Both the position numbers and the translations under genes were made by a program. From a bacterium (lineage in GTDB: Bacteria > Bacillota > Clostridia > Christensenellales > UBA1242): a stretch of 24,454 nucleotides of DNA. Every line of letters begins with the position of its first letter. Position 1 is the first letter of the stretch. The stretch spans positions 1-24,454 of the forward strand of contig CAVBHV010000001.1 in NCBI GenBank assembly GCA_963595385.1, read 5' to 3'. Positions 8,330-9,826 of this stretch are shown one piece after another. Below the pieces are notes generated by a model. The model worked only from the letters and a program-made list of their open reading frames with translations. It ran no database searches and was not told the origin of the DNA.

Positions 8330-8378
8330 AAAAAGACCAAAAATTAGTCAATAAAAAGGCAAATTTAGGTCTTTTTTT
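8330..8378 (+). terminator. Probable intrinsic terminator after the giant + strand gene
   Basis: AAAAAGACC (8330-8338) pairs with GGTCTTTTT (8368-8376) around an imperfect inner stem and is followed by a T-run. It begins 4 nt after the stop codon. Confidence 0.7.
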
Positions 8379-8446: not shown

Positions 8447-8475
8447 TTTACAAAAATATTGATTTATGATAAACT
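8447..8475 (+). promoter_or_regulatory. Sigma-A/sigma70-type promoter for the Rho-like gene
   Basis: -35 TTTACA (8447-8452), 17-nt spacer containing the extended -10 TG (8467-8468), -10 TAAACT (8470-8475), with an A-rich upstream element. Confidence 0.65.
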
Positions 8476-8493: not shown

Positions 8494-8499
8494 GGAGGT
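8494..8499 (+). promoter_or_regulatory. Shine-Dalgarno site
   Basis: GGAGGT; GGAGG ends 7 nt before the ATG at 8506, which favours 8506 over the TTG at 8500 as the start. Confidence 0.85.
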
Positions 8500-8505
8500 T
8501 TGACT

Positions 8506-9747
8506 ATGACAAAAGAGAAATTTAATGTTGATATTAACAAATTATCCAAACTAAATTTGTATCAGTTGCGTGAAGTCGGCTCTAAAATTGGCGTGCGCAA
8601 CCCAACCTCAATGAAAACCGAAGAACTTAAAAATGCAATAAAACTCGTAGTAACTGGCAAAGTTGAACCTTACGAAAAAGTTAAAAGCGGTAGGCCACAT
8701 CGCAAGGAAATAATTAGCGATAACGAATGGGACACTTTGGTAGGCTTTGACACCAGTATTGATTACAACTTTTTTAAACAACCTACCGAATTAGGTATTT
8801 TTTGCTCACCACAAAATGTACTCAATTTTGATACAACACAGCCATTTACTGGTATTGTTGTACAAATTTCAAATGAAATAGTGATTTTTAATGGCAATGT
8901 TGCAAAACTTAATCTAGCAATGCATGCAAAGATTGACAACAAAACCTTAAATAAGGACCTAGTGCGTTTTGGTGACAGTGTTACCGCCGTTGTCGAATAT
9001 GACAACTTAAATTTATGCGCAAAAGAGATAATCTCTATTAACTCACACTCTCCTACTGAACTCAATAGACAAGATTTTGACTTAATGCAACCTAAATTTT
9101 TTGGAGAAACAATAAAATTTAATCTCCCTCAACTACAATTTATCAATGAGGTTGCTCCCATTAAACTCGGTCAAAGAGCGCTTATCCTTGGTGAGATTGG
9201 TAGCGGGCAAAACTATTTGGCTAACAGTATCGCAAAAGACTTGCAAGACAAATATTCGGTCATTTACTTAGCAACCAACAAACGCCCAGAGGAGCAAATT
9301 GTTCTAAATAATGCCGAATATATATTTACGACTTTTGATATTTTACCGCAAGAATTATGGCTTTATGTTGATACTGCCTACAATCGCGCAAAAAGGTTGT
9401 GTGAGCAAGGTGAAGATGTAGTCCTCATTGTTGATGATTTGATAATGCTAATGCAAAATTTAAGAAATATTTTGAGCGAAAAAGGCGTTGATGTCGAAAA
9501 GCACTATTACAACATCTTGCAACAATGCAAAAAGTTGTTTGCGTTGAGTAAAAATACCACTAATGGCAGTATAACTGTGATTTGCACAATTTCAAAATGT
9601 AGTATTACTAAATTTAATGAATTTGTAGATGATTTAAACGAATTATGCAACTGTCATATTGCACTTGTGCGCGAAGATTTTATCAAAGGCAAAGTTGAAT
9701 TTTTTGATAAAAATCTAACTTATACTGAAATGGTAAGAGAAGTTTAA
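8506..9747 (+). CDS. Divergent transcription termination factor Rho homolog (413 aa), probably ATPase-inactive
   Basis: Rho N-terminal helical motif LYQLREVGSKIGVRNPTSMKTEELKNAI; OB-fold remnant LVRFGDSVTA. ATPase-domain motifs collinear with Rho: APIKLGQRALI (Rho APIGxGQRGLI), KRPEE (ERPEE), TTFD (STFD), RAKRLCEQGEDVVLIVD (KAKRLVExxxDVxILLD), KKLF...NGSITVICT (KRFF...GGSLTIIAT). Catalytic residues are substituted, so no rho symbol is given. Confidence 0.85.
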   Translation: MTKEKFNVDINKLSKLNLYQLREVGSKIGVRNPTSMKTEELKNAIKLVVTGKVEPYEKVKSGRPHRKEIISDNEWDTLVGFDTSIDYNFFKQPTELGIFCSPQNVLNFDTTQPFTGIVVQISNEIVIFNGNVAKLNLAMHAKIDNKTLNKDLVRFGDSVTAVVEYDNLNLCAKEIISINSHSPTELNRQDFDLMQPKFFGETIKFNLPQLQFINEVAPIKLGQRALILGEIGSGQNYLANSIAKDLQDKYSVIYLATNKRPEEQIVLNNAEYIFTTFDILPQELWLYVDTAYNRAKRLCEQGEDVVLIVDDLIMLMQNLRNILSEKGVDVEKHYYNILQQCKKLFALSKNTTNGSITVICTISKCSITKFNEFVDDLNELCNCHIALVREDFIKGKVEFFDKNLTYTEMVREV

Positions 9748-9780: not shown

Positions 9781-9782
9781 AC

Positions 9783-9819
9783 AAAAAAGGATACTTAGAT
9801 AAATTAAGTATCCTTTTTT
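9783..9819. terminator. Bidirectional intrinsic terminator between convergent genes
   Basis: Perfect 15-bp inverted repeat AAAAAAGGATACTTA (9783-9797) / 7-nt loop / TAAGTATCCTTTTTT (9805-9819). It gives a U6 tract on both strands and lies between the stops at 9747 (+) and 9827 (-). Confidence 0.9.
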
Positions 9820-9826
9820 ATTGCGC

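Follow-up and report, generated by a model that had tools for sequence, protein, structure and literature searches.

A small-genome clostridial family keeps a motor-dead Rho-like protein whose strongest constraint lies in its N-terminal module

What does a bacterium keep when its only rho-like gene has lost the residues of the Rho motor? The question is raised by the 24,454-nt stretch of Christensenellales DNA analysed here (the window, from genome G000), in which an unbroken rho-like gene encoding the protein P0001 stands between two giant ORFs. A sequence-only reading had described a Rho paralogue with replaced ATPase residues, starting at 9190. The gene itself begins at 8506, and its most strongly constrained part (residues 1–68) lies outside the segment described then (Table 1).

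Table 1. Features of the rho-like gene and its surroundings (positions are those of the window)
Feature	Position	Strand	Basis
Motor-dead rho-like ORF P0001, 413 aa	8506..9747	+	Unbroken ORF; TIGR00767/PF00006 match
Rho N-terminal helix bundle (HeH/SAP-like, ~residues 9–52)	8530..8661	+	Weak PF07498; model fit to 1a62
SGRPH, AT-hook-like basic Gly-Arg-Pro motif ("hook")	8686..8700	+	Alignment A1
Linker/insertion, residues 81–104, low confidence	8746..8817	+	pLDDT <50 in model
OB-like beta domain, RNP1/RNP2 eroded	8836..9060	+	Beta strands in model; motif table; without PF07497 match
RecA-type pseudo-ATPase domain, stopping 5 residues past the arginine-finger position	9061..9744	+	PF00006 E 2.8e-12
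Degenerate P-loop GEIGSGQN (Lys>Gln, Thr>Asn)	9190..9213	+	phmmer and MAFFT alignments
NKRPEE within ATNKRPEE (9271–9294): Lys at catalytic Glu, Arg valve kept	9277..9294	+	phmmer and MAFFT alignments
DDLIML: Walker B Asp kept, Met at R269 position	9433..9450	+	MAFFT alignment
LTYTE: Glu at arginine finger	9715..9729	+	MAFFT alignment
SigmaA-like (sigma70-like) promoter TTTACA, 17 nt, TG-TAAACT	8447..8475	+	9/12 matches
Shine-Dalgarno GGAGG, 7 nt before ATG 8506	8494..8498	+	Read directly in sequence
Bidirectional intrinsic-terminator-like hairpin, common to the rho-like gene and the convergent 4852-aa gene	9781..9821		Folding z
Hairpin and T run closing the upstream 2767-aa gene	8330..8377	+	z −3.0; 3/200 shuffles as good
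Giant ORF, 2767 aa	23..8326	+	N-terminal signal-like stretch; without Pfam match
Giant ORF, 4852 aa	9827..24385	−	N-terminal signal-like stretch; without Pfam match

P0001 matched Rho models best, with scores below the family cut-offs (60.3 against 509.45 bits for TIGR00767; 71 against 315 bits for NF006886); PF00006 was present and Rho_N weak. All 11 PDB sequence matches were Rho, as were the top Foldseek matches (E 1e-19, TM ~0.63) of an AlphaFold2 model with a pLDDT of 87. Profiles, model and Foldseek agree on a Rho_N, OB and RecA-type architecture and fold. An origin from an F/V-ATPase or FliI subunit was rejected, since P0001 scores far better on Rho models and is the only PF00006 gene of G000. 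Separately, a search of five family genomes found no F-/V-type ATPase subunit in four (G000, G007, G057 and G064) and two in G020.

Motor residues were mapped by aligning P0001 in MAFFT with 12 intact same-order Rho proteins and again in phmmer alignments to PDB Rho chains, which reach residue 385 and so exclude the arginine finger. In E. coli numbering T185 and R366 are the Walker A Thr and the arginine finger. The positions K184, D210, E211, R212, D265 and R269 are listed in PMC11347177. Both alignments placed Q235 and N236 at the Walker A Lys and Thr (K184Q, T185N), and N258 and K259 at D210 and E211, so that the catalytic Glu is replaced by Lys (E211K). M314 occupies the R269 position after Walker B in the MAFFT alignment (R269M), as does E408 that of the arginine finger (R366E), a column that rests on the multiple alignment near the protein end. 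The replacements named in the sequence-only reading, in the P-loop, at the catalytic Glu, after Walker B and at the finger, were thus borne out. The arginine valve R212 (R260) and the Walker B D265 (D310) are both retained. That reading had missed further losses: the RNP1/RNP2 motifs of the primary RNA site are unrecognisable in the same-order alignment, a profile search gave no PF07497 match at the gene, the Q- and R-loops of the secondary RNA site are gone from the alignment with the 12 intact proteins, and ~50 C-terminal residues (the C-terminal cap) are absent relative to intact Rho.

None of 52 family sequences, the top-scoring ones included, keeps all seven catalytic residues scored, and the erosion is graded from five down to none. 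The substitutions seen in P0001 are conserved at genus level, with Q235 and K259 invariant in 12/12 sequences, but both columns vary across 49 family sequences. The least eroded members, L046 and L052 of genus g67, keep the catalytic Glu, Arg valve and arginine finger and have lost Walker A; genus g5 is the opposite, with Walker A kept (four sequences retain GxxGxGK[ST]) and Glu and finger lost. These are two different first steps of motor loss. Of the 20 family sequences with Lys at the E211 position, 17 have Asp or Glu at the finger; none of the 13 other sequences in which the finger position is occupied has an acidic residue. A charge-swap salt bridge between the two positions was set aside as a lead, since those sequences form one part of the tree and K259 lies outside the predicted interface residues.

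In G000, which is 89% complete, profile searches found no canonical rho; the one TIGR00767 match and the one PF00006 match were both P0001. No genome passed the TIGR00767 cut-off among the 16 others of the genus or among the 201 of the family (best 197 of 509 bits), while 109 of 151 Christensenellales genomes searched did so. As intact Rho sometimes falls somewhat under this cut-off, the seven catalytic residues were scored directly. P0001 is therefore the sole rho-like gene found in its genome rather than a paralogue, as had been supposed. Two other profile matches in G000 were discarded: a PF07497 match on contig C35 belongs to a 705-aa protein that, by its sequence, we take to be RNase R-like and not rho, and a second PF07498 match falls by chance in a presumably GIY-YIG-like ORF. 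At L223 (G000:C123) a GIY-YIG-like 95-aa ORF is followed, at ~520–750, by short imperfect repeats that look REP-type by eye. Six of six genomes searched from family f37 gave no rho match at E≤1e-19; this family has either lost rho completely or holds a further eroded form.

The P0001 ORF is under purifying selection, strongest in its N-terminal module. The Nei–Gojobori dN/dS of a single pair, G000 against G007 (93% identical), was 0.087, on which a simple pseudogene was rejected; this is the 78th percentile of the genome comparison (median 0.044 for 237 of 238 reciprocal orthologues in 400 kb of G007). By region, the ratio was 0.03 for residues 1–68, 0.15 for the OB domain and 0.115 for the ATPase domain. 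Together with the Rho fold and an N-module found in 186 of 201 family genomes (15 gave no match), this sustains the earlier proposal of a maintained, non-catalytic Rho-fold protein rather than a decaying gene.

All seven invariant columns of alignment A1 (49 family proteins) fall within residues 22–64; they include G62, R63 and P64 and the surface residues R22, P33 and T34. Mean identity over N-module, OB and ATPase domains was 47/23/24% in 51 family proteins; in the sister family it was 35/25/28% for 28 dead proteins, against 37/41/67% for 29 intact ones. These means and the trees exclude sequences under 340 aa, and the rows L014, L023, L031 and L155 and duplicate loci were dropped. Among close pairs hand-picked from the tree, dN was lower in the N-module than in the ATPase domain in 9/9 dead pairs, and the reverse held in 8/8 intact pairs, of which two share a sequence and two have tiny values. 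When N-module dN was scaled to whole-gene dS, most dead pairs gave smaller values than most intact pairs. The strongest constraint has thus shifted to the helix bundle and hook at the N-terminus, the reverse of intact Rho.

The N-module has a pI of 10.0 and a weak PF07498 signal (44 of 48 members at E≤0.1), and its model best fits E. coli Rho 1a62 (45 residues aligned at Z 6.6 and rmsd 1.7); fits to SAP and LEM domains (Z 4–5) are within the chance range for helical bundles. An AT-hook is defined by a Gly-Arg-Pro core among basic residues, and we take the motif at 8686–8700 to be AT-hook-like. GRP is present in 49/51 family sequences, the Arg before it is usually Lys, Gln or Ser, and there is no Pfam AT-hook match.

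Shortened forms show which parts can go. Among 20 loci with short frames there are 3 complete genes of N-module plus OB domain, 4 stand-alone N-modules of ~100 aa, 3 with a much eroded ATPase part, 8 cut at contig ends and 2 without an N-module; the 100% complete genome G064 has no PF00006 match. The dead ATPase scaffold is dispensable in some genera. The N-module is not the sole part kept, since genera g3, g6 and g66 retain the OB domain and an ATPase remnant with the N-module absent or eroded (7/9 loci without an HMM match). The stand-alone Rho_N-plus-hook genes (L228, L233, L234 and L235, ~100–130 aa) may be mobile, as three of them accompany a long form as second copies and two stand divergently to an ORF-like stretch that by eye resembles a helix-turn-helix regulator.

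Sister family f8 has both dead and intact Rho at one locus. A rho match was found in 59/61 genomes, 13 of them above the cut-off; of 57 sequences 29 keep all seven catalytic residues and 28 do not, and in none of the 61 genomes do an intact and a dead copy occur together. The gene preceding dead and intact copies alike is metal-dependent-hydrolase-like (its match falls below the cut-off of that family), and each of four genera contains both kinds. In a tree built without ATPase columns the dead copies group with intact congeners, implying at least nine changes of state, and a single clade for 26 dead rows among 57 was rejected (p-AU 0.00024; LG+G4, quick search) in a test run after that grouping had been seen. 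The motor was thus lost several times in f8. The full-length tree instead groups dead proteins of f1, f8, f16 and f20; for f8 we attribute this to long-branch attraction, since the tree without ATPase columns mixes dead with intact congeners. Families f9, f16 and f20 have eroded copies too.

The window's family is one clade (FastTree support 1.0) nested among families with small genomes in which intact Rho already has the hook. Small genomes with sporulation genes agree with family UBA1242 as described in PMC12306168. Its rho-like gene probably descends from the ordinary rho of the order: orthology is direct for f8 and inferred for the window's family, whose locus differs from the intact rho locus of sister families and whose place in the full tree is subject to long-branch attraction.

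Among 52 family loci, not all of them complete, 36 have a homologue of the 2767-aa giant next to dead rho; a homologue of the 4852-aa giant adjoins it in 11 genus loci. The former protein ends in a hydrophobic helix followed by a basic tail; the latter has many GGLVG-like repeats. In 24 loci of the window's family ypeB lies upstream of dead rho. The partly eroded Rho at L212 (G364, family f16) likewise has ypeB upstream and is a possible link between the gene orders of the window's family and other families.

Of the promoter, ribosome-binding site and terminator that had been called good, the ribosome-binding site and the 3′ hairpin (folding z −6.3 on the plus and −7.1 on the minus strand) hold up; the promoter call alone is weak evidence, as the region holds 12 sigma70-like sites where its shuffles gave 7.4 ± 2.3. 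The −35 element overlaps a one-mismatch copy of a family motif, TTTT(GT/AC)AAAA. This motif flanks or overlaps the −35 in the family and was found within 200 nt upstream in 30 of the 48 family loci (of 51) with enough upstream sequence, against a shuffle mean of 1.4, and in 8/27 further loci against 0.6, kin loci among these counts not being independent. Of 270 promoter regions in G000, 13 have it (1 of the 59 sigmaA-like ones); it occurs in 1/28, 1/29 and 1/46 loci of other families, and in 0/9 loci of genera with a lost or eroded N-module; dead Rho of the sister family has the N-module and lacks the motif. The motif resembles an UP element and could serve as one, as a Spo0A-type site or as the protein's own operator. 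A Spo0A box as a family-wide feature was rejected: TGNCGAA was found at 4/48 loci, within shuffles, and only the second locus set was enriched, with TGTCGAA at 7/27 loci (shuffle 0.3) against 2/48 of the first. Spo0A-like domains were present in 40/40 family genomes tested, and a tie between N-module loss and loss of sporulation was not seen. These ~1-Mb genomes have 1–4 genes for a Spo0A C-terminal domain, some with frames of only 120–190 aa, and the best G000 match (1e-25) is weaker than most relatives'.

According to PMC4499133, Rho needs a catalytically competent ATPase pocket for duplex unwinding and termination, so classical termination by P0001 is not expected. We give about an even chance to P0001 being an ATP-independent, likely oligomeric nucleic-acid binder. 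By this proposal, rho lost its ATP-motor residues and RNA-recognition motifs and the gene was kept by purifying selection; the helix bundle and Gly-Arg-Pro hook would likely grip DNA or RNA without base-specific reading of rut sites, and the dead ATPase domain, predicted to hold subunits together, would display several N-modules on a ring or open oligomer. AT-rich double-stranded DNA, in a nucleoid or promoter-covering role, would be favoured over RNA. E. coli Rho, according to PMC12133298, binds double-stranded DNA non-specifically and coats the stationary-phase chromosome via its primary binding site.

The oligomer is suggested by a model of three copies of residues 108–413, with a head-to-tail, Rho-like interface scoring 0.47 against 0.00 for the best control, which may be a memory of solved Rho rings. 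The score mark was reached by 20/30 solved pairs and 1/23 single chains; runs agreed on at least 82% of contacts with pLDDT of at least 85. Conservation of interface residues did not exceed that of the remaining domain (p 0.44 in the family, 0.23 in the genus); polar interface residues in the genus gave p 0.017, one of four tests of which the other three were not significant. For the dead ATPase domain, the "scaffold" of the sequence-only reading is plausible, though it is residues 1–68 that are most strongly constrained. Against a nucleic-acid binder stand the purifying selection on the ATPase domain itself, the loss or erosion of the module in g3, g6 and g66, and the interface that is not clearly more conserved. 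A bolder form, which we consider doubtful, would make P0001 an AT-rich-DNA-binding ring, a nucleoid organiser or repressor derived from an RNA motor, that reads TTTT(GT/AC)AAAA at its own promoter through module and hook; it would have arisen repeatedly from an ATP-independent function latent in its ancestors.

The main rival to the nucleic-acid binder, less probable and still to be taken seriously, is a motor-free adaptor in transcription or RNA decay, for which plant RHON1 is an analogue: the N-module would dock on nascent RNA or on a protein such as RNA polymerase, NusA/NusG or a ribonuclease and tune elongation, pausing or decay. It predicts the same constraint pattern, with the N-module kept best; the invariant surface residues R22, P33 and T34 are what a partner-binding patch would look like, NusG is present in G000 and Rho–RNA polymerase complexes are among the fold matches. 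The loss of the RNP motifs, Q/R loops and C-terminal cap argues against it, as does the hook, which resembles a minor-groove grip. The same N-terminal domain is needed for RNA binding in E. coli Rho, according to PMC11347177, which favours the adaptor. It is improbable, at a lower level again, that P0001 is a sequence-preferring DNA-binding regulator, acting at TTTT(GT/AC)AAAA to repress its own and perhaps other promoters in place of termination-based autoregulation. The enrichment of the motif and its absence where the N-module is lost or eroded fit; yet it sits at the −35, resembles both an UP element and a Spo0A box in genomes that all have Spo0A-like domains, is missing beside the module of sister-family dead Rho, has a mismatch in the window and was counted in kin. 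In its favour, PMC11599450 describes rho as autoregulated in several bacteria and as re-expressed during sporulation in B. subtilis.

A slowly eroding vestige, leaving the genome because Rho termination is dispensable and retained only through weak selection for a product that folds and does no harm, is about as unlikely as such a regulator. Graded erosion, the loss of different halves in different genera, a dN/dS above the genome median and the absence of Rho from 30% of Bacillota (PMC11347177) all suit it; persistence of the N-module in 186 of 201 genomes of ~1 Mb, its dN/dS below the genome median, its lower relative dN in most dead pairs, the open frames and the conserved promoter motif do not. 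That P0001 is still active, as a divergent ATPase or a nucleotide sensor relying on substitute residues, is very improbable: a glycine-rich loop, R212 and D265 are kept, Q235 and K259 are invariant in the genus and four g5 sequences keep their Walker A motif, but five catalytic positions are replaced in P0001 and no common substitute runs through the family. Given the g5 motif, nucleotide binding without hydrolysis may persist. The dominant-negative or modulatory subunit proposed earlier, co-assembling with canonical Rho, is the least credible of all. The Rho fold and the predicted Rho-like self interface would allow it, but the searches of G000, of 16 other genomes of the genus and of 201 family genomes found no canonical rho for it to act on, so this reading fails, and no f8 genome holds both an intact and a dead copy.

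How does P0001 compare with known systems? It shares with canonical Rho (TIGR00767, NF006886; PDB 1pv4, 3l0o, 7oqh, 8hsj) the order Rho_N, insertion, OB and RecA-type domain, single copy, its top Foldseek matches and the predicted head-to-tail self interface. Unlike canonical Rho it lacks the Walker A Lys and Thr, catalytic Glu, R269, finger, Q/R loops, RNP1/RNP2 and C-terminal cap, and constraint in its family is highest in the N-module and not in the ATPase domain, which PMC11347177 gives as highly conserved among functional Rho proteins. Motor-dead Rho-like proteins are already in print for other phyla, without an assigned function in that paper's supplement: those of Baekduia, Conexibacter and relatives have the catalytic Glu replaced and the Q/R loops missing, and in those of Alistipes only the RNA-binding domain is recognised. 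Like its Rho-like class having an N-terminal domain plus one for RNA binding, P0001 has lost the catalytic Glu and Q/R loops in a genome without functional Rho. That class has a conserved RNA-binding domain, unlike P0001, whose OB domain is eroded as far as the ATPase domain (mean identity 23%), and it belongs to a different phylum, so that a separate origin is likely. Group B or short Rho paralogues (NF041509) are likewise divergent Rho homologues, but according to PMC11347177 they lack the N-terminal domain, keep the ATPase residues and often lie beside a full Rho; P0001 is the reverse and scores 54 of 628 bits on their model. Stand-alone Rho_N (PF07498), HeH, SAP and LEM proteins with AT-hook-like motifs also have a small basic helical module, of which the family has stand-alone copies, and short Rho_N proteins are the nearest Atlas clusters (scores 0.87–0.90, leads only); in P0001, by contrast, the module remains joined to a dead Rho body that can be traced back to a rho gene. 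A full-text search that covered few subscription papers turned up no article on Rho in this clostridial family, on constraint shifted to the N-module or on the repeated losses. What is new here is a reduced-genome family whose only Rho is motor-dead, next to relatives in which independent losses form a natural series.

Rho is usually taken to be active wherever it is present, or else to be lost. A family with ~1-Mb genomes instead keeps a motor-dead Rho, and the N-terminal helix bundle with its hook, usually seen as an accessory RNA contact, is a unit that selection keeps by itself. Annotation by the presence of Rho domains overcounts functional Rho in gut Clostridia, and bicyclomycin would find no working target in bacteria of this kind. 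The intact and dead versions in f8, at the same locus and even within genera, form a natural series for two questions: what role Rho has without ATP hydrolysis, and by which route lineages give up Rho-dependent termination.
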